Assembly (NCBI GenBank): GCA_965232465.1
Contig: OZ246977.1
Coordinates: 2,502,135-2,566,134, forward strand
Direction of reading: 5' to 3'
Source: Alphaproteobacteria bacterium
GTDB lineage: Bacteria; Pseudomonadota; Alphaproteobacteria; JAQWUY01
DNA length: 64,000 bases
Under the pieces are notes generated by a model. That model did not search any database. It had not been told where the DNA came from and worked only from the letters and a program-made list of their open reading frames with translations. The position numbers were made by a program, and so were the translations under genes. The first letter of the stretch is position 1. Each line of letters starts with the position of its first letter. Below are positions 1-13,505 of the stretch, in pieces.

Positions 1-1023
1 AACAGCCATAAAAAATATATCGCCAAAACCTGTGTGATGGAAGGTTTAATTGCAATACATACACATTTTTCTGATGTACATGGGCAAAACATGCATAATT
101 TTCATAGGCACAAAATGTCCCGAGAACACCAAAGAAACAAGGTGGGACAGTCTAAGCATCAAAATGACCGCAACCGCAAAGCCCGTAACCAGACCAAATA
201 TTTTCACAACCAAAAACAGCACCTACAACAAAAATATCGGTGTTATGTACACGAAGGGACGGGTTTACGATTATGGAAATTTGTTAAATATTATAATTTT
301 ATCGGTAAAAAGAATCTCGATCGTATATTGCAAAAAATGGGCTTTGAAAATGGTACCCGCCATATTGAAAACGCATCATATAACAGTAAAAACCCTTCAT
401 TTACTTTTGATATTATGGGGGCATATGTGCTAAATATACATATAGGATTTGTGTTATATGGTGTGTATATGGATATATATAATCATGTTTTATCCCATAT
501 GCCCCTTGATAAAAAAGGCAAACCCATATTTGAAAAAAAAGCCAATGGTCAAAATAAAGATTTATTACAAGATATATTAAAAAATTCTTCGGTTAAACAA
601 CAGGTCGGTACTATTTTTGATAAAAATACCATAAAAATATTAAATGTACCAAGAAATAATGTACAACACAACCGCTTGTTTGACAGTGAATTAAAAGATA
701 TGGCAATTTTTGATATATTTAATGTATACATTCGGGTTTGTACACATTTAAACTTGCACACCGCCCGGGAAAAAATTATCCACCAGATATATACCATATG
801 TAAAAAACAAGATTATGCTATACACAAAGAAACTGGTAAAAAAGTCAAACAAGATGGCACAGGATATTATTATTACGAAATAAAAGAATGTGGACAAAAA
901 ACCCGTTGCTCTGTATGTAAAGATATAGTATATACCCGACCATATATAAGAAAATATGCCCGTTTATATAATAAAAACCTTATTAAAGCTATTAAAAAAA
1001 ATGGATACAAAATATCCCATTAA
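1..1023 (+). CDS. 5'-truncated ORF (reading frame open from window position 1); very basic, Asn/Lys/His-rich protein. Contains RNNVQHN (R207-H212 of the listed ORF) and REKIIH (R245-H250) RxxxxH motifs. Candidate C-terminal part (HEPN2 region) of a Cas13b-like type VI-B effector; otherwise a hypothetical CRISPR-adjacent protein.
   Basis: The ORF track lists 34..1023, but frame 1 has no stop between positions 1 and 33, so the gene probably continues upstream of the window. RN-x3-H-N is the canonical HEPN RNase motif of Cas13 proteins. It lies about 110 bp upstream of the CRISPR array on the same strand. There was no homology search; assignment rests on motifs and context. Confidence 0.4.
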   Translation, partial: NSHKKYIAKTCVMEGLIAIHTHFSDVHGQNMHNFHRHKMSREHQRNKVGQSKHQNDRNRKARNQTKYFHNQKQHLQQKYRCYVHEGTGLRLWKFVKYYNFIGKKNLDRILQKMGFENGTRHIENASYNSKNPSFTFDIMGAYVLNIHIGFVLYGVYMDIYNHVLSHMPLDKKGKPIFEKKANGQNKDLLQDILKNSSVKQQVGTIFDKNTIKILNVPRNNVQHNRLFDSELKDMAIFDIFNVYIRVCTHLNLHTAREKIIHQIYTICKKQDYAIHKETGKKVKQDGTGYYYYEIKECGQKTRCSVCKDIVYTRPYIRKYARLYNKNLIKAIKKNGYKISH

Positions 1024-1436: not shown

Positions 1437-1548
1437 TCGCTTGATTGTGCATTTGTTAATACATGGGGTGACCTAACTAAAAATAGGTTATTTTATTGCA
1501 GGTCATTTTTTTATAGACAACAGATACTATTTTGCATATAGTCATTTT

Positions 1549-2034
1549 ATGTTAAAAAAGATACTTTTCGGTGTTGGATTATGGACTGTAACGACCCCTG
1601 TGTTTTTCCCTGCTATTGGGGGGGGGGTTGGGGGGGTAACAGGGTATGCTATTCCCCGATTTGTGTCGACTAAGGGTAAAAGTAATGTTCGCACAGGTCC
1701 GGGGACAAAATATCCTATACAGTTTACTTTACAAGTCCCTGTGCCCTTACAAATCATTGAGGAATATGAGAATTGGCGGAAAATTACTGATTGGCAAGGG
1801 GAACAAGGCTGGATACACGGGGCATTATTAACGGGGGAAAAACAAGGTATTGTTACCACGCCCAAAACCCCCATATACAAAAAGCAAACCCCCCATAGCC
1901 CAATTATCGCCACCGCAGAAAAAAATTATGTTTTTGCAATCAGCGAATGCACCGCTAAGTGGTGTAAAATACACATACAATCCCCCATTATAAAAGGATA
2001 TGTACGCACACAAGATATATGGGGCAATCCATGA
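1549..2034 (+). CDS. Exported bacterial SH3-domain protein with two SH3b-like domains. Contains a G10-TT-G7 homopolymer tract encoding GGGVGG.
   Basis: N-terminal hydrophobic signal-like segment. SNVRTGPGTKYP...GWIHGALL matches the bacterial SH3 (SH3_3/4) pattern NVRxGPGTxYP...GWxHxxLL. A second similar domain is near the C-terminus. Confidence 0.6.
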   Translation: MLKKILFGVGLWTVTTPVFFPAIGGGVGGVTGYAIPRFVSTKGKSNVRTGPGTKYPIQFTLQVPVPLQIIEEYENWRKITDWQGEQGWIHGALLTGEKQGIVTTPKTPIYKKQTPHSPIIATAEKNYVFAISECTAKWCKIHIQSPIIKGYVRTQDIWGNP

Positions 2035-2107
2035 TGCGTAAGAATAAAATGGCAAGAATACACAATCATGTTGTTATATCTATATATGTAAACAGGCAAT
2101 ATATATA

Positions 2108-2722
2108 ATGATTATTTTATCACATCGGGGATATTGGCACCACCCCCACGAAAAAAACACTGCGGCGGCTTTCCATCGGTCGTTTTCCATGGGATTTGGC
2201 ACTGAAATGGATGTGCGGGATGGCAATAACACATTGGTTATAGCACACGACATACCCACAGGCAATGAAATATCACTTGCCCAAATGTTGGATATATATT
2301 GTCAATACGATATGTCTCTGCCGCTTGCCATTAACATTAAAGCGGACGGATTGCAACCGATGCTGTGCGATCTGTTACACCGATACAAAATCCGCAATTA
2401 TTTTTTATTCGACATGTCGGTGCCCGATCATATTGTGTCATTAAAGCACAAACTCACCTGTTTTACCCGTCACAGCGAATATGAAAACTGCCCTTTATAT
2501 GACCCATCACACGGTGTGTGGATGGATACTTTCACAGACGATTGGATCCATGTGCACAGCGTGAAAAAACACTTGCAAAACAATAAAAAAGTTTGTATTG
2601 TATCCCCAGAACTGCACAGACGCAAGCACCTTGACACATGGCATACATATGCCGATTTACCCCGTCAGGTGATGCTGTGTACAGATTACCCCGAACGGGC
2701 AAAGGACTTTTTTAATGGTTGA
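2108..2722 (+). CDS. Glycerophosphodiester phosphodiesterase (GDPD) family protein.
   Basis: N-terminal ILSHRGY...EKNTAAAF...G...EMDVRDGNNTLVIAHD resembles the GDPD signature (HRG...ENTLxAF...ExDV...DG...V.HD). Confidence 0.55.
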   Translation: MIILSHRGYWHHPHEKNTAAAFHRSFSMGFGTEMDVRDGNNTLVIAHDIPTGNEISLAQMLDIYCQYDMSLPLAINIKADGLQPMLCDLLHRYKIRNYFLFDMSVPDHIVSLKHKLTCFTRHSEYENCPLYDPSHGVWMDTFTDDWIHVHSVKKHLQNNKKVCIVSPELHRRKHLDTWHTYADLPRQVMLCTDYPERAKDFFNG

Positions 2723-3341
2723 TATTAAGGCTATTATTTTTGATATGGATGGGGTATTGGTGGATGCCCGGGATTGGCATTATGAAGCCCTGAACAAAGC
2801 CCTGATGTTATTTGGGGCGGAAATATCCCGTCAAGACCACTTGACGACCTATGATGGATTGCCCACCAAAGATAAATTAAAAATGCTTAGCAAAGCCACC
2901 GGATTTCCAACCGGATTACACGATTTTATCAACGAAATGAAACAAAAATATACCCTGCAAGTTATCAACGAAAAAGCCAACCCTACTTTTGAACACGAAT
3001 ATGCCCTGTCCCGATTGTATGCACAGGGGTATAAATTAGCGGTTGCTAGCAACTCAATTTATAATACTATTGATATTTTAATGGAAAAATGTGCCCTGCA
3101 ACCATACTTAGAATTTTTCTTGTCCAACGAAGATGTAAAAATGGGCAAACCCAACCCAGAAATTTATACCAAAGCCATACATAAACTGGGTTTAAGCCCA
3201 CAACAATGTGTTATCATAGAAGACAATGTCAACGGTATCAAAGCCGCCACCGCCGCCGGGGGACATGTGATGCAGGTTGCCAATCCGTCACAAGTTACAT
3301 ACGATGCCATTATGGCTTTTATCAAAGGCATAAAGGGGTAA
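2715..3341 (+). CDS. HAD-superfamily hydrolase (subfamily IA, beta-phosphoglucomutase/phosphatase-like).
   Basis: Motif I IIFDMDGVLVD at the N-terminus. A C-terminal motif IV-like segment IIEDNVNGIKAATAAG. Overlaps the upstream gene by 8 bp, suggesting an operon. Confidence 0.7.
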   Translation: MVDIKAIIFDMDGVLVDARDWHYEALNKALMLFGAEISRQDHLTTYDGLPTKDKLKMLSKATGFPTGLHDFINEMKQKYTLQVINEKANPTFEHEYALSRLYAQGYKLAVASNSIYNTIDILMEKCALQPYLEFFLSNEDVKMGKPNPEIYTKAIHKLGLSPQQCVIIEDNVNGIKAATAAGGHVMQVANPSQVTYDAIMAFIKGIKG

Positions 3342-3345
3342 TACT

Positions 3346-4419
3346 GTGTTAAATATCTTATTACCGCTCAGCAAAATAAACACCGTGCATAATGGGCATC
3401 AAGACATACCGATTATATCCTTACGCATCAAGGGAAAAACTTTACTCGAATGGGCATTAGAACCCTTTTTAAAACTGCCTAATACGCATATTTGTGCCAT
3501 ACTTGGCAACGATATGCACACCCCATCGATTGCCCAAAACTTGCCGGACACCGTATCGATTTTACACACCCAAGGGGATACACGGGGTGCCACCTGTACC
3601 TGTTTATATGCCCACGATATATTAAATGCAGGATTGCCATTATTGGTGTCGTCTCTTGACCATTTTATATCCTTAGATGTACATGCCATGACAACACATT
3701 TACAGGCACAACAGGTCGATGCAAGCAGTGTCATTTTCCCCTCAGATGGCAACCCCATATATTCATATGCGGAAATCCGCAATGGCAAAATTACCCGTGC
3801 CTTAGAAAAACAAAGTATCACCAATACCGCCATGGCGGGTGTATATTATTTTAGCACCACAAACACATTTTTTGACCACGCAAAAAACCTTATTCGCAAA
3901 CAAACCACCCAATATCAGGACGGATATTTTATATCCGGCGTTTTAAACGAAATGGTATTGTCCGGATTGGATGTGGTGCCATATGAACAGCCCGATTTAT
4001 CATATTTTAAGGTATATGACATACCCAGCTACAACACATTATGTGATTTTATGCAGTCGGATGGGCATATGGAAAATACTATGGATACTGTCCATATACA
4101 TAAATTACGGGACTTTGTCAGGGGTTGGATAGTGGGGGACTTCAGCCCATCGTTGTATAAAACCCAAGATTTTGAATGTGCCATACAACGGTTTACCAAA
4201 GGACAAAAAGAAGCTGTACATACCCATAAAATTGCCACAGAAATCACTGTCATAATCTCAGGACGGGCGGAGATGTGCGGTAAACAGGTGGTCGCAGGCG
4301 ATATAATTGTTGTCAAACCCTATGAATACACGGGTTTTGAGGCACTGGAGGACACTGTAACAGCCGTTGTCAAAATCCCCGGGGCAAAAAACGACAAATA
4401 TAGTAAAGACACCTTATGA
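3346..4419 (+). CDS. Two-domain protein: a degenerate nucleotidyltransferase-like N-domain (G-rich loop lost) fused to a C-terminal cupin resembling FdtA/WxcM-type sugar 3,4-ketoisomerases.
   Basis: The N-terminal ILLPLSK...IPIISLRIKGKTLLEWALEP parallels the adjacent paralog IVIPMAGLGSRF...PKPLIPIHKKPMI but lacks GxGxR. The C-terminal AVHTHKIATEITVIISGRAEM...GDIIVVKP is cupin-like with a His-x-His pair. GTG start assumed. Confidence 0.4.
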   Translation: MLNILLPLSKINTVHNGHQDIPIISLRIKGKTLLEWALEPFLKLPNTHICAILGNDMHTPSIAQNLPDTVSILHTQGDTRGATCTCLYAHDILNAGLPLLVSSLDHFISLDVHAMTTHLQAQQVDASSVIFPSDGNPIYSYAEIRNGKITRALEKQSITNTAMAGVYYFSTTNTFFDHAKNLIRKQTTQYQDGYFISGVLNEMVLSGLDVVPYEQPDLSYFKVYDIPSYNTLCDFMQSDGHMENTMDTVHIHKLRDFVRGWIVGDFSPSLYKTQDFECAIQRFTKGQKEAVHTHKIATEITVIISGRAEMCGKQVVAGDIIVVKPYEYTGFEALEDTVTAVVKIPGAKNDKYSKDTL

Positions 4420-5524: not shown

Positions 5525-6529
5525 TTGAAAAAGTTAAATAAGCAAGTGATACACCACAGCGACATTACTTTTGTTATGCAGGGACCTGTTGTTCCTGAAA
5601 CCAGCAAGGCTATGCAACAGATACAACAGATTATGCCCGAATCAAAAATCATTTTATCCACATGGCACAATCAAGATGTATCAGACATTGCGTGTGATGG
5701 TATCATTGAAAATGATGACCCCGGGACACTCGATGGCGGACCAGAGCCATATTTTAATAATGTCAATCGGATGATTGTTTCCACCCGTAATGGATTGCAA
5801 CGGGTAACAACAAAATACGCTGTTCGCATCCGTACCGACAGCACCATTAAAAACGATACTTTTATACCATTGTATGAAAAAATGATGGCATCAGGACATG
5901 CACAACCCAGTTGGTTTAAACACCCTATTATGGTAATTTGTTATAGGGAATTTTTGGTAACCCCTTATCTTGTTGGCGACCCGTTTCATTTTGGCTTAAC
6001 ATCCGATGTATTAAACTTGTGGGACATTCCATTGGCAACGCAACAACAGGCAGAATATTTTAAAAATAAAAAATGTAAAAACAGTTTGTTAAGACCATGG
6101 TATTTATCCAGTAAAAGATTTTATCCACAATATTTTGGACCCGAACAATATTTAATGTGTATGTTTTTACAAAAATGTCACATTGACATAGATTATACAC
6201 ATCATCAAGATAATATTACAATTTATAAAACCATACGCAGTATAAAGGGTATCATACATAATTTTTTTCTTGTGGCACAAGATGATATTCCACTGCATTG
6301 TTATAAATACCCTGAAACAGACCCAGAACCTATGGTGCAATTTTGGTACAAAATGCACACACTGCCCCCCCCCCAATGGATATTTTTTGTATATAGCCTA
6401 AGACGCAAAAAACGCAGAACTTATGTAAGACGCACATATGGCGAAACAGCATATAAAATATACAAAAATACAGGGAAAATAATATTCATTCTGCTGTTAT
6501 TATCTGTTGTATTTTTTTATATCATTTGA
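5525..6529 (+). CDS. WavE-like LPS-biosynthesis family protein (tentative). Contains a C10 tract near the 3' end.
   Basis: N-terminal ITFVMQGP...ILSTW resembles my recollection of the WavE family (Pfam PF07507). TTG start per the ORF track. Sits in the glycan locus. Sequence after the poly-C is low-complexity (RRKKRRTYVRRTY...), compatible with an alternative frame after slippage. Confidence 0.35.
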   Translation: MKKLNKQVIHHSDITFVMQGPVVPETSKAMQQIQQIMPESKIILSTWHNQDVSDIACDGIIENDDPGTLDGGPEPYFNNVNRMIVSTRNGLQRVTTKYAVRIRTDSTIKNDTFIPLYEKMMASGHAQPSWFKHPIMVICYREFLVTPYLVGDPFHFGLTSDVLNLWDIPLATQQQAEYFKNKKCKNSLLRPWYLSSKRFYPQYFGPEQYLMCMFLQKCHIDIDYTHHQDNITIYKTIRSIKGIIHNFFLVAQDDIPLHCYKYPETDPEPMVQFWYKMHTLPPPQWIFFVYSLRRKKRRTYVRRTYGETAYKIYKNTGKIIFILLLLSVVFFYII

Positions 6530-6697: not shown

Positions 6698-8662
6698 TTA
6701 ATAAAATTGTAAAAAACGGCGTTTTAACGATTTTAAATTCCAATATTTTTTATACAACCGTAAGCATATATACAACACAATTTTTCCCATAATACCTTTA
6801 ACCCAAAACGGTTTTTTAAAATCCTGTGTTTCCATAAGATTGCGTAGTTGCACCCCGATGTTTTCCATACTTTGCCGGCGGATATATGGGCTGTCGACAA
6901 AGGGATTGTCCAATATATACGATTGGTATAATTCTGGATCCTTATCCACTTGTGCAATATATGCCATAGCCTGTTCAAAACTATCAAAATCTTTTACATT
7001 AATAAACGCCTCAGCCTTGATATAATTATAAATGTTATCGCCCCCCCAATATATGGGAATTGCCCCCGCCCGCAACGCCATAAATGCTTTTTCAGAAAAA
7101 CTGTAATAGTCCTTATTATTTTCAATACACAAAGAAAACCGATACTGTTCAATGATATGATGCATGTCCATATCAGCAGTAATAGTCCCTTTTTCGGTTT
7201 TTAAGGTGCTGATATTACGGTACTGTCGCCCCCATGAATGCACTGTATTATAAAATTGTTTTTGCATTTTTTTATACAATCGGTTGCGCACGCCCGCATA
7301 TTTATTGCCATACATAAATATGCAAAAATGGCGTTTTTGGTGCGGGTATCGGGACACAAAATCAGGATTTTTTCCATCGAGAAAATTAAATAAGTCATCG
7401 CCCACAAATAACAAATGCCATAATATATCATGGTGATCGAAATTGCTTATCATAATATCGGTAAAGGGCAAACGGGGGATAAAATGCTCGCCCCCCACCA
7501 ATACCCTAATACAATCATATTTGTACATATCATTGCTTGTAATATCATAAAACGCAATATCAGGATTGTCATTTACCCACTGTATAGTATACAATTTTCC
7601 CAACATCAACAGGGCAACATCTGTATGGCCATGATGACTTAACACCCGCAATGTCTTACGCTTGCAAGCCATTGGGCAAGCCATTGGGATAGCATACTGT
7701 GTAAAAATATGGTGTAATATACTATCTTGATAACAGTTGGGATAATATGTCAATTTATGTATATTATTTTTATGGGTGATTTTATGCCACAAATCGTCTG
7801 AGTATGGGGTGTGTATATGTGCGGACAATAAAGTGGGGTAAATATCGTCCATAATTTCACAATTATCATACCCATCAATAATCTCATGAAATAAAATTTG
7901 AAATAAAAAATAGTGCTTAAAATTTTTCTCATTTTTCCAATAATTACACAGGATTTGTACCAATTTTTCCATAACCTCATTATGCGGTTTGGCAACAATA
8001 AAACTGTTTAGCAATCGTACTTTAAAATCCTTATCCCATGAAAAATACTCTGGATTAAACTTGTGCCAATATTTATAATCCGCAGGCTTTTCCCCCCGTT
8101 GAAACATAAAAAAATCTTTGTCAAGCAACGTATTTGGAATTTTATCCGATAAATAAAGGGTCGCATCACACCATACCCCCCCATATGCGGACAACAAACA
8201 CACCCGCAATATATCAGAAAAAAAAGTATAGGTAAAATGACGATTATTATACAGTTTATCATATATAAAATCCGGCAGGTCAATATAATCGGCGATGGTA
8301 TCGTTGGTTAAAACGATGACTTCGTACTCCCCCCTGTGTTGGTGTACACTTGCCATACATGCCCGTACAATATGAGGGGTGTTTTTATCAATCCCCTGCC
8401 CCCAATATTGCCAAATGATTTTTTTGTGTTGTAAATCTTGTTGCACAGGTATATCAAAGTGTTGTATATCCTTTTGAATATATTTTCGCTGTAAATATCG
8501 TGCCACCTTTTGCTGATCGGGTATAATTTTTGCCCACCGATATTTTTGTTTTATCTTTTTGCGTACACGCTTAATGGGCATCATTTTATACAGTATAAAC
8601 AACAGGTATATATACATTACCAGCCCCCAAATCTTTTGCGTTTTGACATGACTGTTTTCCAA
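6698..8662 (-). CDS. Bifunctional glycosyltransferase: N-terminal GT32-like (Gly_transf_sug, DXD) domain plus C-terminal GT10 alpha-1,3/4-fucosyltransferase-like domain.
   Basis: The N-half FSDILRVCLLSAYGGVWCDATLYL matches the GT32/OCH1-like motif (sDllRyxxLyxyGGiYxDxD). The C-half CIENNKDYYSFSEKAFMALRAGAIPIYWG matches the GT10 motif (FENS...YVTEK...A...PIYWG). The true start may be Met16 at 8617, which would remove the 46-bp overlap with the upstream gene. Confidence 0.65.
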   Translation of the reverse strand: MENSHVKTQKIWGLVMYIYLLFILYKMMPIKRVRKKIKQKYRWAKIIPDQQKVARYLQRKYIQKDIQHFDIPVQQDLQHKKIIWQYWGQGIDKNTPHIVRACMASVHQHRGEYEVIVLTNDTIADYIDLPDFIYDKLYNNRHFTYTFFSDILRVCLLSAYGGVWCDATLYLSDKIPNTLLDKDFFMFQRGEKPADYKYWHKFNPEYFSWDKDFKVRLLNSFIVAKPHNEVMEKLVQILCNYWKNEKNFKHYFLFQILFHEIIDGYDNCEIMDDIYPTLLSAHIHTPYSDDLWHKITHKNNIHKLTYYPNCYQDSILHHIFTQYAIPMACPMACKRKTLRVLSHHGHTDVALLMLGKLYTIQWVNDNPDIAFYDITSNDMYKYDCIRVLVGGEHFIPRLPFTDIMISNFDHHDILWHLLFVGDDLFNFLDGKNPDFVSRYPHQKRHFCIFMYGNKYAGVRNRLYKKMQKQFYNTVHSWGRQYRNISTLKTEKGTITADMDMHHIIEQYRFSLCIENNKDYYSFSEKAFMALRAGAIPIYWGGDNIYNYIKAEAFINVKDFDSFEQAMAYIAQVDKDPELYQSYILDNPFVDSPYIRRQSMENIGVQLRNLMETQDFKKPFWVKGIMGKIVLYICLRLYKKYWNLKSLKRRFLQFY

Positions 8663-9636
8663 AATTTATGATACCCAAATCGTAATATTTTATGAACAAC
8701 AGGCGTACGGCACAAAGTCCTTACAAGCGGACGCTGTTTTGGAGTATAAGGGGCAATATCATTTTCTATGAACTGTTGCAGTCGCATTCTATTGCGTGCA
8801 ACTTTATCCGATACATCGGATACATATGGGTTGGCATTTCTGTATTTTTGATATAAATGCACATCCGTATCGACTTGTAACACATACGCCACTAAGTCAG
8901 CGATAGTATCAAAATCACGGGCGTCAATATACGCATCTTTATTGACAAAAGTATCAATATCTGACGGTCCCCAATAAATCGGCACACTGCCCACCTCCAA
9001 TGCTTGAATAACTTTTTCTGAAAAACTGTAGGGGCGTAGTCCATTTTCCATGGCAATGGTAAACTTATAATGCCGTAGAGTATACAATTTCTCCATTGCC
9101 CTTAAATCCAAACCCTGATCTTGGTATTTGTGTAAATCCTTTGGCATGTCCGGTATGTCATACATATCCATATTTTTCATAACCGAACCCAAGCTGTCCA
9201 CTTTTTTACGCTGATTTAAAGCCAGAAAAAAGGCATTTCTAAATTTTGTATATTGATTTCCATACATAAAATTACAAAATCTTGTCTTCGGGTATTGTAT
9301 AAAATGTTGCTTATCCAAACCCACCTTAGACAATTTATTGTGCACATCGATAAATAAAAATCCTGCCATCATTTCCAAACTATGAAAAATATTTTTTTGG
9401 GATTTTTTACCATATATAATGGCAAAATCTGCTTGCCACACATTAGGATAAAAATGTTCTGAGGCTATGAAAATATAAATTTTATCTCGGTAAAAAAAGG
9501 GTATATTGTCAAAAGGTCCAAAAAAAACAATATGTGCATCTTGATATGTGTCTGCTAATACAAAGTGTTTTTGTAACACATTGTTTAAGAAAAAATATTG
9601 TCCCTTGCGATAGTTGTATAAAAAATACCTTTTCAT
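8617..9636 (-). CDS. GT10 family alpha-1,3/4-fucosyltransferase-like glycosyltransferase.
   Basis: C-terminal FTIAMENGLRPYSFSEKVIQALEVGSVPIYWG matches the GT10 catalytic/donor-binding motif. Confidence 0.65.
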   Translation of the reverse strand: MKRYFLYNYRKGQYFFLNNVLQKHFVLADTYQDAHIVFFGPFDNIPFFYRDKIYIFIASEHFYPNVWQADFAIIYGKKSQKNIFHSLEMMAGFLFIDVHNKLSKVGLDKQHFIQYPKTRFCNFMYGNQYTKFRNAFFLALNQRKKVDSLGSVMKNMDMYDIPDMPKDLHKYQDQGLDLRAMEKLYTLRHYKFTIAMENGLRPYSFSEKVIQALEVGSVPIYWGPSDIDTFVNKDAYIDARDFDTIADLVAYVLQVDTDVHLYQKYRNANPYVSDVSDKVARNRMRLQQFIENDIAPYTPKQRPLVRTLCRTPVVHKILRFGYHKFWKTVMSKRKRFGGW

Positions 9637-9732: not shown

Positions 9733-10491
9733 ATGAAAGTGGCGGTTTGTTTATTTGGACATTTGCGAACATACAAAAAATGTTATAAGTCGATTATAAA
9801 AAATATTATTCACCCGAATAATGCCGATGTGTTTATGCATACTTGGGATACACTGGAATCAGAAACCGCCACATGGCATAATAAAAAAACCAAAAACCGC
9901 CCCATTAGCCCACAAGAACAACATACCATTCAACGCATATACACCACTCAGGGGTTCGTCTGTGAAAAACAAATACAGCCAAAAACCACACCTGTACCGG
10001 ATGATTGTCCGAACCTTAACGCAGGGGGATTTATCGCAGGTAAAAATATTTGTAAATCCATGCGTACCAGTGTGCAACTGGCCCAAGCACACAATACATA
10101 CGACATCATTATTTTGGTTCGCAATGATTTATACATTAAAAATAAACTTATTGTCGACATTACAAAAAAACATCTATTGATGTTTTGTGGCCGTCATGAA
10201 ACCGGGGATAAAAACCATTACTTAGGATACCATTGTATTGACTTATTGTTGTATACGAGCCCCGCCATGTTAAACAAATTTCTGTCTTATTTCCCAGAAG
10301 ATAAAAATGACATACAGCACTTAACAAACGGTCCCAGTTCATGGTATATATACATGGATAAGGTTATAAATAGTGTACCCGTACCAAATACGGATTTTAA
10401 TTACATACACGATTACTATATCAAGCGAAAACCCATCGGATTATACCAACAAATACGCCAAAAATACCGTGAACTTAAAGGGCGAGTATAA
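9733..10491 (+). CDS. Hypothetical protein within the glycan locus (possible uncharacterised glycosyltransferase).
   Basis: 252-aa ORF with good coding appearance, on the opposite strand to flanking GT genes. No recognisable motif. Confidence 0.35.
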   Translation: MKVAVCLFGHLRTYKKCYKSIIKNIIHPNNADVFMHTWDTLESETATWHNKKTKNRPISPQEQHTIQRIYTTQGFVCEKQIQPKTTPVPDDCPNLNAGGFIAGKNICKSMRTSVQLAQAHNTYDIIILVRNDLYIKNKLIVDITKKHLLMFCGRHETGDKNHYLGYHCIDLLLYTSPAMLNKFLSYFPEDKNDIQHLTNGPSSWYIYMDKVINSVPVPNTDFNYIHDYYIKRKPIGLYQQIRQKYRELKGRV

Positions 10492-11344: not shown

Positions 11345-12130
11345 CTATTCGCCCTCGACTGTGGGCGACACAACCACAGAAAACGGTTTTTTCAATTTAT
11401 AACGCAGTGTATAAGACACACCGAGTCTGCCAAAAAATGATCCCGCAAAGCGTTTACGAATATGGTGTTTTCGCATGTTTTCTATTTGTGATTGGCTCAG
11501 GCTGGGGTGGGTGATAAGCCGGGGCGTAACCACTTGGGCGGGTATGGCGGTAATATCCGTAAACCAATCGGACACATAGGATATGGGGAATACTGTATGG
11601 GCAAATTGCGTAGCGGTGGGCAAATCCACATAATACCCTACCGCCCCAGCACAGTTGTTTATAACAGGGGCAATACTATACCCCCCCCATAAGGGATGTT
11701 GTTGTGATGGGATAATGCGGGCATACAGGTGGTATAACAACACAAACCCTGCCGTATGGTTTGGCAAAATATCCTGCTTAATGATGTGGACAAAATCCAT
11801 ATCACACAAAAAATCATCTTCCAAAATAATGCTGTGGGCGATATTTTCTGTTACAATCTTTTCGTATAACAACGCATGGCTTAACGCACAACACATTTCC
11901 ACATCTGATACCATGCGCCGTAAGTTCTTGTCCATAGCCGGGCGATCAATCCGCTGTATATACGCATCGGGCACCCCCTGTGTACCATCCACCGCATCAA
12001 AAAATTCAAATTCCAGCCCCAACTTTTGCATCTTTTCAAGTACCACCCGACGGCGTTTAGTGGCATCACGCAAAGATATGATATATATTTTTATATCAGG
12101 CATGGTCATATCATTTCTTGTCATCGTCAT
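11345..12130 (-). CDS. GT25 family LPS/LOS glycosyltransferase, tandem paralog. Contains a G8/C8 tract at 11691-11698.
   Basis: KIYIISLRDATKRRRVVLEKMQKLGLEFEFFDAVDG is the same GT25 N-terminal signature. Confidence 0.75.
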   Translation of the reverse strand: MTMTRNDMTMPDIKIYIISLRDATKRRRVVLEKMQKLGLEFEFFDAVDGTQGVPDAYIQRIDRPAMDKNLRRMVSDVEMCCALSHALLYEKIVTENIAHSIILEDDFLCDMDFVHIIKQDILPNHTAGFVLLYHLYARIIPSQQHPLWGGYSIAPVINNCAGAVGYYVDLPTATQFAHTVFPISYVSDWFTDITAIPAQVVTPRLITHPSLSQSQIENMRKHHIRKRFAGSFFGRLGVSYTLRYKLKKPFSVVVSPTVEGE

Positions 12131-12351: not shown

Positions 12352-12636
12352 ATGTCAAAGAATAGGAAAGCCCGCAGTATAGAACAAATTATCCATATAT
12401 TACGGGATGCAGAGATTAAGTTATCGTCAGGTATGACAGTCAGTGTTATGTGCCGTGATTTAGGTATATCGGATGCGACTTATTACAAGTGGCGCAAACA
12501 ATATGGTGGTATGGATGTTAATCATGCCAAAGATTTAAAAGCATTATTGGATGAGAATACCCGTTTAAAGAAGCTTGTTGCTGATTTGAGTTTAGACAAT
12601 CAAATCTTAAAGGAATTTAACTCGGGAAAGTGGTAG
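12352..12636 (+). CDS. IS3-family transposase OrfA (HTH and leucine-zipper).
   Basis: 94-aa product with ...[14 protein letters not shown]...[17 protein letters not shown], typical of IS3 OrfA. A GGGAAAG slippery heptamer at 12624-12630 precedes the stop. Confidence 0.8.
12624..12630 (+). promoter_or_regulatory. Putative -1 programmed ribosomal frameshift heptamer G_GGA_AAG joining IS3 orfA to orfB.
   Basis: X_XXY_YYZ pattern in the orfA frame, 4 nt before the orfA stop. orfB frame open from 12621. A G7 run follows at 12643-12649. Confidence 0.45.
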
Positions 12637-13505
12637 GTGATGGGGGGGTAAAAAGCTTTATTGGCAAAGCCAAGTCTTTTTACAATGTATCAGAACGGCG
12701 ATTATGTAGTTTATTCAGGACACATCGCTCTACGGTTCGTTATGTGAAACGAGATGTTGATGAGGAAAGCCGTTTAATATCAGATATGCACCGTCTAGCA
12801 CAAAAATACCCTAGATATGGTTATCGGCGGATATGTGCCTTATTAAAAGGTTATGGTTGGTGTGTAAACCATAAGCGGATTGAACGGCTTTGGAAACAGG
12901 AGGGATTACAAGTGCCACAGAAAATACCCAAACCCCGTAGTTCAAATGCTGGTGATGGGAGCTGTATTAAACTTCGTCCTGAGTATCAAAATCATGTATG
13001 GAGTTATGACTTTGTGCATGACAAGCTGAGAAATGGTAAAGGCATTAAAATATTAACGGTTATAGATGAACATAGCCGAGAATGCTTAACCATTGATGTG
13101 CGGCATAAACTGAACAGTACGGATGTATTGGATATTATGGGCAGGTTGTTTATCACAAAAGGTATGCCTAAGCATATCCGTTCTGACAATGGATCTGAAT
13201 TTATAGCCCATAGGCTACAAGGTTGGTTGAAGCGTATGCAGGTGGGTACAGCATACATTGATAAGGGCAGTCCATGGCAGAACGGTTATAATGAAAGTTT
13301 TAATGGTAAACTTCGGGACGAGTGCTTGAACAGGGAGATATTTGATACTTTAACTGAGGCACAAGCCATTATAGAAAACTGGCGGTATGAATACAATCAT
13401 ATCCGTCCACATAGTGCGTTAGGGTACAATCCACCAGTGCCAAAAATGCAACCCATTGTCAATGATATCCGTCATTCCGCTACGCTACATGACAAATATC
13501 ATTGA
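12630..13505 (+). CDS. IS3-family transposase OrfB (DDE integrase core), expressed by a -1 frameshift fusion with OrfA.
   Basis: [12 protein letters not shown]...[13 protein letters not shown]...[13 protein letters not shown]...[22 protein letters not shown] is a classic rve/DDE integrase signature. It is in the -1 frame relative to orfA and is open from 12621. Confidence 0.85.

Follow-up and report, generated by a model that had tools for sequence, protein, structure and literature searches.

The 64,000-nucleotide stretch of DNA analysed here (the window) derives from an uncultured alphaproteobacterium and contains a surface-glycan locus of lipooligosaccharide (LOS) or lipopolysaccharide (LPS) type, in which one gene encodes two glycosyltransferase (GT) modules in a single polypeptide. 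This gene lies in the open reading frame (ORF) at positions 6698..8662 on the reverse strand, which exists as described in the ORF listing and encodes 654 aa from a TTG codon. The first-pass annotation of the window, made from the DNA letters, had placed the real start at Met16, and this is borne out by the sole database copy of the protein (P0001, 639 aa), which begins at this residue, and by a TAATG junction with the upstream gene. The coding sequence of the fused two-module glycosyltransferase occupies 6698..8617, with the stop codon at 6698-6700; residues are numbered as in P0001 (ORF residue minus 15) unless ORF residues are specified, and all features of the gene given below lie on the reverse strand. 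At the TAATG junction (8615..8619), the TAA of the upstream gene (8619-8617) shares one base with the Met16 ATG (8617-8615), an arrangement typical of translational coupling. The upstream gene is a stand-alone GT10 paralog (8617..9636, reverse strand, 339 aa), which had been predicted and is supported as real by its match to PF00852 (E=4e-17); it is 29% identical to the C-terminal half of the fused protein. The overlap reported between this paralog and the 5' end of the fused gene holds for the listed ORF, where it spans 46 nt, but falls to 1 nt when translation starts at Met16.

A Pfam scan of the fused protein identified two distinct and complete GT modules in one uninterrupted frame, in agreement with the fusion originally proposed, so the protein is not one with only one GT domain. 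The modules comprise Caps_synth (PF05704; ORF residues 49-318, E=7e-69, 232.7 bits against a cut-off of 24.5) in the N-terminal half, and FucT_N (PF18025; ORF residues 346-412, 36.6 bits against 27.2) and Glyco_transf_10 (PF00852; ORF residues 443-582, E=1.4e-17, 64.3 bits against 23.9) in the C-terminal half, where the GT10 motif quoted in the first-pass annotation is present. The N-terminal half had been described as GT32-like and linked to Gly_transf_sug (PF04488); it is GT32-like, but the correct family is Caps_synth, and the match to PF04488 remains under the Pfam threshold (21.1 bits against 23). No NCBIfam model matches the fused protein.

The N-terminal module (aa 34-303, 7709..8518) is a GT32-like GT-A domain of the Caps_synth family, as indicated by Pfam, the structural model and fold matches, and the protein begins with a hydrophobic and basic helical segment (aa 1-47, 8477..8617) that is common to other Caps_synth proteins and may associate with the membrane. 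The AlphaFold2 model has a predicted local distance difference test (pLDDT) score above 90 over aa 30-290, and its Foldseek matches include Och1 (9n3s, GT32, E=9e-6), SetA, YeGT, glycogenin and LgtC, all of which are retaining GT-A enzymes. In a 13-member alignment of Caps_synth proteins (A3), 37 columns are invariant, and the module keeps every one of them, including D135, R138, G146, G147, W149, D151, A152, H235, Y236, H287 and K288. The same 13-member alignment locates the nucleotide-sugar-binding motif S-D-ILR-x-LLSAYGGVW-C-D-A-T (D135...D151-A152-T153, 8159..8215), which had been quoted as a DXD motif; the motif is present, but it reads D-A-T, as elsewhere in the Caps_synth family, and the module has no canonical DXD. 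Because D-A is invariant and T is conserved in at least 90% across the 13 Caps_synth proteins, D-A-T represents the normal state in this family rather than a defect. WciE, another member of PF05704, has been described as a retaining enzyme of family GT32 whose probable role is the addition of a branching alpha-Gal (PMC10462825).

The C-terminal module consists of the FucT_N N-lobe (aa 331-397, 7427..7627), which includes Glu377 (7487-7489), and the Glyco_transf_10 C-lobe (aa 428-567, 6917..7336), which includes R444, N500 and E509-K510 (7088-7093), both delimited by Pfam, and ends in a basic amphipathic helical tail (aa 584-639, 6701..6868) common to stand-alone orthologs. The closest relatives of this half (P0039-P0041) are stand-alone proteins of 319-324 aa, 52-55% identical and encoded in related fucosylation loci, and their first residues, M-[QK]-x-L-R-[IV]-Y, align with K-R-K-T-L-R-V at aa 319-325. 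The alignment thus begins at the first residues of the orthologs and reaches the basic tail, which makes the module a complete GT10 enzyme. A known counterpart is the alpha-1,3-fucosyltransferase Helicobacter pylori FucT/FutA (HpFucT; GT10; 2NZW, 2NZX, 2NZY), which is matched by the protein alone with E=1e-12 and by a profile of the GT10 group with E=6e-44 over FucT residues 43-317. The C-lobe, modelled confidently over approximately aa 400-580, matches the HpFucT fold (2nzx, E=8e-11, Foldseek), and the mean pLDDT of the whole-protein AlphaFold2 model is 77.8. Five residues, E377, R444, N500, E509 and K510, align with HpFucT Glu95, Arg195, Asn240, Glu249 and Lys250, of which Arg195, Asn240 and Lys250 are presumably catalytic or donor-binding residues. 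In HpFucT, Glu95 is the proposed catalytic base and Glu249 could stabilise an oxonium intermediate, and mutants of either residue are virtually inactive (PMC4202792). The basic amphipathic tail is a further shared feature, and may associate with the membrane as it does in HpFucT (PMC4202792). Differences from HpFucT include the absence of the DDLRINY heptad repeats, the low identity of approximately 21-23%, and the fusion of the GT10 module at its N-terminus to a second glycosyltransferase.

The two modules are joined end to start by a linker of approximately 10 residues, with HHIFTQYAIP-MAC-PMAC-KRKTLRV across the junction. Stand-alone Caps_synth proteins terminate 6-15 residues past the S-[ILM]-L motif, whereas the fused chain runs on into the linker. 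The junction itself carries a perfect 12-nt tandem duplication (7664..7687; CCAATGGCTTGC x2 on the coding strand), encoding P-M-A-C-P-M-A-C at aa 311-318. The window contains just one other perfect tandem duplication of at least 12 nt; by the present authors' own estimate, approximately 0.004 perfect tandem repeats of that kind would be expected by chance. The other, ATTTTTGCAGAC x2, lies at 36036-36059, between an ankyrin gene and an IS256 transposase. A T5 homopolymer on the coding strand (7703..7707) follows the last conserved residues of the Caps_synth module and precedes the junction, and its end lies 16 nt before the 12-nt duplication. Insertion of one T in this run would give a 320-aa Caps_synth product ending in ...LQA*, and deletion of one T a 325-aa product ending in ...HCGC*; after either change Met312 or Met316 could start a GT10 ORF of 324-328 aa. 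The GC contents of the two halves of the gene are similar (34.0% and 36.3%).

The pairing of these modules is rare. No second protein with Caps_synth and GT10 was found in a search of 5.8 billion proteins, in which P0001 alone carries both domains and every other match is confined to the N-terminal half, and none of the best 150 matches among 1.84 billion representatives (phmmer; at least approximately 110 bits) covers both halves, the stand-alone GT10 protein P0039 ranking first. No other fused copy was found at the 88 fetched loci, among which 34 genome and 52 metagenome loci match the N-terminal half only, and GT10-like sequence is absent from all of them except two (L001 and L002), so that none adjoins a Caps_synth gene there. 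The Caps_synth and GT10 fusion is therefore not conserved in sampled relatives. The first-pass annotation had suggested comparing fused and split versions in relatives; the fused state was found only in this gene, and no split Caps_synth-GT10 pair occurs in the sampled loci. In L001 and L002 the gene ahead of the GT10 ortholog is a GT2 gene and not Caps_synth, and no GT10 lies near the Caps_synth gene in the other 86 loci. No split ancestor is consequently present among the sampled sequences. P0236, the only long protein with its best match in the GT10 half, was considered as a second fusion and rejected, as it is a GT10-GT10 tandem. This 682-aa protein has two FucT_N and two Glyco_transf_10 stretches, and P0243 (565 aa) is a Caps_synth-Caps_synth tandem; the pair show that each family also makes homo-tandem fusions.

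Other partners of Caps_synth are common. The closest relatives of the N-terminal half are stand-alone proteins or fusions to HtrL-like, GT6, GT8, GT2 and GT25 domains, and many of the proteins that match only this half in the 5.8-billion-protein search are approximately 570-920 aa in length, with HtrL-like, GT6, GT8, GT2, GT25 or GT14 as the second domain. In other long proteins scanned, Caps_synth is found at either end, together with HtrL, GT25 and methyltransferase, TPR, GT6 or GT2; the partners seen in database proteins also include GT14, methyltransferase and TPR. The database fusions most comparable to P0001 (P0002-P0004 with HtrL-like, P0005 with GT6, P0006 with GT8, P0009 with GT2 and P0019 with GT25) have the same N-terminal module at 44-54% identity, the same boundary past the S-I-L-E-x-L motif and a similar length of approximately 570-680 aa, but none has a GT10 partner, and the orthologs of the P0001 GT10 module are stand-alone genes of related fucosylation loci. 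Between the stand-alone protein P0167 and the N-terminal module of P0005, a Caps_synth-GT6 fusion, identity reaches 84%, and the similarity breaks off at the same boundary; Caps_synth modules therefore gain and lose partners at short evolutionary distance.

The fused gene is situated within a low-GC block (34-36%, compared with 41% for the window) of a chromosomal region that also encodes UvrC, DegP, Dxs, AcnA and GlnD. The AcnA protein is 90% identical to that of a relative (P0048), 80% to that of a 'MAG: Alphaproteobacteria bacterium' and approximately 68% to those of Rhodospirillales-like taxa. The low-GC block forms a variable glycan locus, which includes a beta-phosphoglucomutase-family HAD hydrolase, two sugar-1-phosphate nucleotidylyltransferase-like genes, WavE, the GT10 paralog, a DUF7796-like gene, two GT25 genes, an insertion sequence (IS) transposase of the IS3 family, a formyltransferase, an acyltransferase_3, a GT11-like gene and ManC. 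None of wzx, wzy, wzm and wzt was found among the window ORFs scanned, and the locus content appears closer to LOS outer-core assembly than to O-antigen polymerisation.

Genes of this locus resemble two different gene sets in other genomes. The metagenomic loci L001 and L002, which derive from relatives of the window organism, share with it ManC (80% and 75% amino acid identity, respectively), GT25a (73% and 69%) and the ortholog of the GT10 module (53% and 55%), which in L001 overlaps its upstream GT2 gene by 32 nt. Both loci are rich in fucosylation genes: clear GT10 paralogs number two in L002 (3936-11770) and three in L001 (5319-13105), where a fourth is faintly recognisable, and each locus further encodes GT11, GT25, GT2 and ManC, which makes the set similar to that used for Lewis-type antigens. 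L089 encodes the closest relative of the N-terminal half (P0002), which is itself fused to an HtrL-like domain, and shares with the window Caps_synth (54%), the HAD hydrolase (60%), an NTP-transferase (47%), the cupin (56%), o2108 (43%), WavE (28%) and the DUF7796-like gene (two copies, 28-33%). The L089-type and L001/L002-type gene sets interleave along the window, and the fused gene joins one member of each.

Beyond the anatomy of the gene, the completeness and conserved residues of both modules, the setting in a glycan locus and the rare pairing, which are direct observations, the gene is probably a genuine, lineage-specific fusion encoding a dual-module LOS/LPS glycosyltransferase, whose modules would both act on the same oligosaccharide. 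By analogy with WciE and Och1, the N-terminal module would be a retaining alpha-hexosyltransferase using a nucleoside diphosphate (NDP)-hexose, which may be supplied by the co-travelling HAD and NTP-transferase cassette. The C-terminal module would be an inverting alpha-1,3/4-fucosyltransferase of GT-B fold with GDP-fucose as its donor. The protein is predicted to be a peripheral inner-membrane enzyme at the cytoplasmic face, where both modules would work on one growing LOS/LPS oligosaccharide, adding two neighbouring or possibly successive residues, and the fusion would oblige the two activities to be co-expressed 1:1 and kept close together.

The origin of the gene may have involved the joining of the HAD, NTP-transferase, cupin, DUF7796-like, WavE and Caps_synth set represented by L089 to the GT25a, GT10, GT11 and ManC set represented by L001 and L002, the join lying at the module boundary at which partner domains of Caps_synth proteins have repeatedly been acquired and lost. 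This could have occurred either by replacement of the 3' module in a P0002-like gene or by loss of the stop codon between adjacent genes. A more tentative proposal, which is possible but doubtful, is that the fusion formed recently, being one nucleotide from the split state, with a 12-nt duplication that is still perfect and two gene sets joined, and that it could build a fucosylated, perhaps Lewis-like epitope in a possibly host-associated, ankyrin-rich organism.

Several observations weigh against a genuine dual-module enzyme. The fused state is known from one sequence in one assembly, a single-nucleotide change in the T5 run separates the fused from the split state, the linker and FucT_N lobe (aa 311-393) have pLDDT below 50 in the AlphaFold2 model, and the GDP-fucose synthesis genes gmd and fcl are absent from the window, in which only ManC is present. 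The first two of these bear on the explanation that two overlapping genes, a Caps_synth gene of 320-325 aa and a GT10 gene of 324-328 aa, were merged by a 1-nt homopolymer error in sequencing or assembly. Such an artefact is unlikely, although both products of a T5 indel have normal stand-alone lengths, in-frame ATGs are present at the junction, the L001 GT10 ortholog provides a precedent for overlap with an upstream gene, and searches returned no other fused copy. T5 is a short homopolymer, and AcnA (with five G/C runs of at least 6 nt), GlnD, Dxs and UvrC are all intact and of full length relative to their homologs. The internal ATGs lack a purine-rich ribosome-binding context, and the fused frame after T5 (TQYAIP) resembles the P0002 linker (YNFAPQ) better than the shifted frames do, which is weak evidence in the same direction. 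Chimeric assembly was also considered and is unlikely, because the two source gene sets are interleaved, leaving no single breakpoint, and the GC contents of the halves are similar.

If the fusion is real, only one module might be catalytic, the other serving as a membrane anchor, scaffold or acceptor-binding domain. Non-catalytic GT-like modules do exist, and the D-A-T in place of a canonical DXD and the lack of a visible GDP-fucose pathway in the window could be read in this way; this is nevertheless improbable, since D-A-T is common to the whole family, including members taken as active (PMC10462825), the family-invariant residues of both modules are retained, and ManC and a GT11-like gene are found in the same locus. 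Very improbable is a third arrangement, in which translation also starts internally, at either Met312 or Met316, to give a separate GT10 protein besides the fusion, or in which slippage switches the gene between a fused and a split form, as in phase variation. Both ATGs are in frame and precede by 4-8 codons the position aligned with the start codon of the orthologs, and homopolymers are abundant in the fused gene, but no Shine-Dalgarno (SD)-like sequence precedes the ATGs, promoter-like matches occur at chance level (22 found against 20.2 expected), and T5 is too short for efficient slippage. The missing internal ribosome-binding site is not decisive, because SD usage is generally weak in this genome. 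G/C runs are a genome-wide trait that is not enriched in the fused gene: 76 runs of at least 6 nt are found in the window, approximately 10 times the expectation from base composition, and they extend to housekeeping genes, for which reason phase variation through the G6-G7 runs was rejected as a feature specific to this gene. An internal promoter or terminator was likewise rejected, with matches at chance level and only a weak downstream hairpin (z-score -1.8).

Multi-module glycosyltransferases are established in LPS and capsule assembly, with WbdA, WbbM, WbbB and K. pneumoniae ORF6-O7 as examples (PMC11231755). Like the fused protein, these have two complete GT modules per polypeptide and belong to LPS-type loci, and WbbM (6u4b) is among the Foldseek matches of the fused protein. 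These enzymes are mostly polymerases of ABC-transporter-dependent O-antigen pathways, whereas no wzm, wzt or wzy was seen in the window and the context of the fused gene is similar to that of LOS outer-core assembly without polymerisation. Pneumococcal WciE and Acinetobacter baumannii GtrOC27 and GtrOC33 belong to the same Caps_synth/GT32-like class as the N-terminal module, and the GtrOC proteins are likewise found in a variable LOS-type locus, but all three are single-module proteins. A hexosyltransferase and a fucosyltransferase act consecutively within one polypeptide in Dictyostelium PgtA, a bifunctional beta-3-galactosyltransferase/alpha-2-fucosyltransferase acting on Skp1. PgtA differs in being eukaryotic and cytoplasmic, with a protein acceptor and GT families other than GT32-like and GT10, and is not homologous to the fused protein.

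Both multi-module glycosyltransferases and fusions of Caps_synth to other domains were already known, and what is new is the pairing of a GT32-like GT-A module with a GT10 GT-B fucosyltransferase. Neither sequence searches nor literature searches returned another Caps_synth/GT32-like and GT10 pairing, and literature searches found no described multi-module LPS or capsule glycosyltransferase with a GT10 module. The gene leaves the current understanding of glycosyltransferases unchanged, but it illustrates how variable LOS/LPS loci create enzymes, with a Caps_synth scaffold paired at a fixed boundary with GT6, GT8, GT2, GT25, HtrL-like and GT10 domains. Provided that the fusion is genuine and each module is active, the protein would be a natural one-polypeptide catalyst of two consecutive glycosylations including alpha-1,3/4-fucosylation, which could be of practical interest for the chemo-enzymatic synthesis of fucosylated glycans.

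Other features of the glycan locus include a second apparent gene fusion, at 3346-4419 on the forward strand (357 aa), in which an NTP-transferase-like N-terminal part is combined with a cupin-like C-terminal region (aa 253-352); in L089 (region 1516-3575) the counterpart of this C-terminal region is an ORF of its own (111 aa, 56% identity). The DUF7796-like neighbour (9733-10491, forward strand, 252 aa) shares 28% identity (E=7e-17) with the N-terminal domain of P0011, in which three domains (DUF7796-like, Caps_synth and HtrL-like) are combined, and two homologous DUF7796-like ORFs lie directly upstream of P0002 in L089 (6064-8008). The domain make-up of P0011 and the layout of L089 provide a Rosetta-stone link that would connect the DUF7796-like domain to Caps_synth. 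The WavE-like ORF (5525-6529, forward strand) contains a C10 homopolymer (6365-6374), encoding PPP near aa 280 and located past the Pfam match at aa 14-258, which is a candidate slippage or phase-variation tract or possibly an assembly error. Further G/C homopolymers include G10 and G7 in an SH3 ORF (1618-1636), C8 in GT25a (11681-11688), C13 just upstream of the ankyrin gene (35916-35928) and G8 runs at 29660, 62250, 63563 and 63636.

Transposases are present both inside the glycan locus, where an IS3-family gene (12630-13505, forward strand) separates GT25a from the formyltransferase, and outside it, as an IS256-family gene (36359-37600, forward strand). The ankyrin-repeat protein (31725-35675, reverse strand) is 1316 aa in length, and its matches to Legionella Ank effector models are driven by the repeats. 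At the left edge of the window, an ORF that is cut by this edge (1-1023, forward strand, 329-341 aa visible) has a sub-threshold match to Cas13e (NCBIfam NF049956, E=2.3e-12, 46.8 bits against 175) and contains an R-N-N-V-Q-H motif that fits the HEPN-like Rx4H pattern. The region has no match in Pfam, PADLOC or Rfam. The CRISPR-like array (1131-1436) lies immediately downstream of the ORF and consists of five copies of a 36-nt repeat, GTTGTAAGATCCGCTCTTTTGAGGGCGGACTTGCAC, with a 66-nt period and 30-nt spacers, and the ORF and array together suggest a type VI-like CRISPR-Cas locus in this uncultured alphaproteobacterium.

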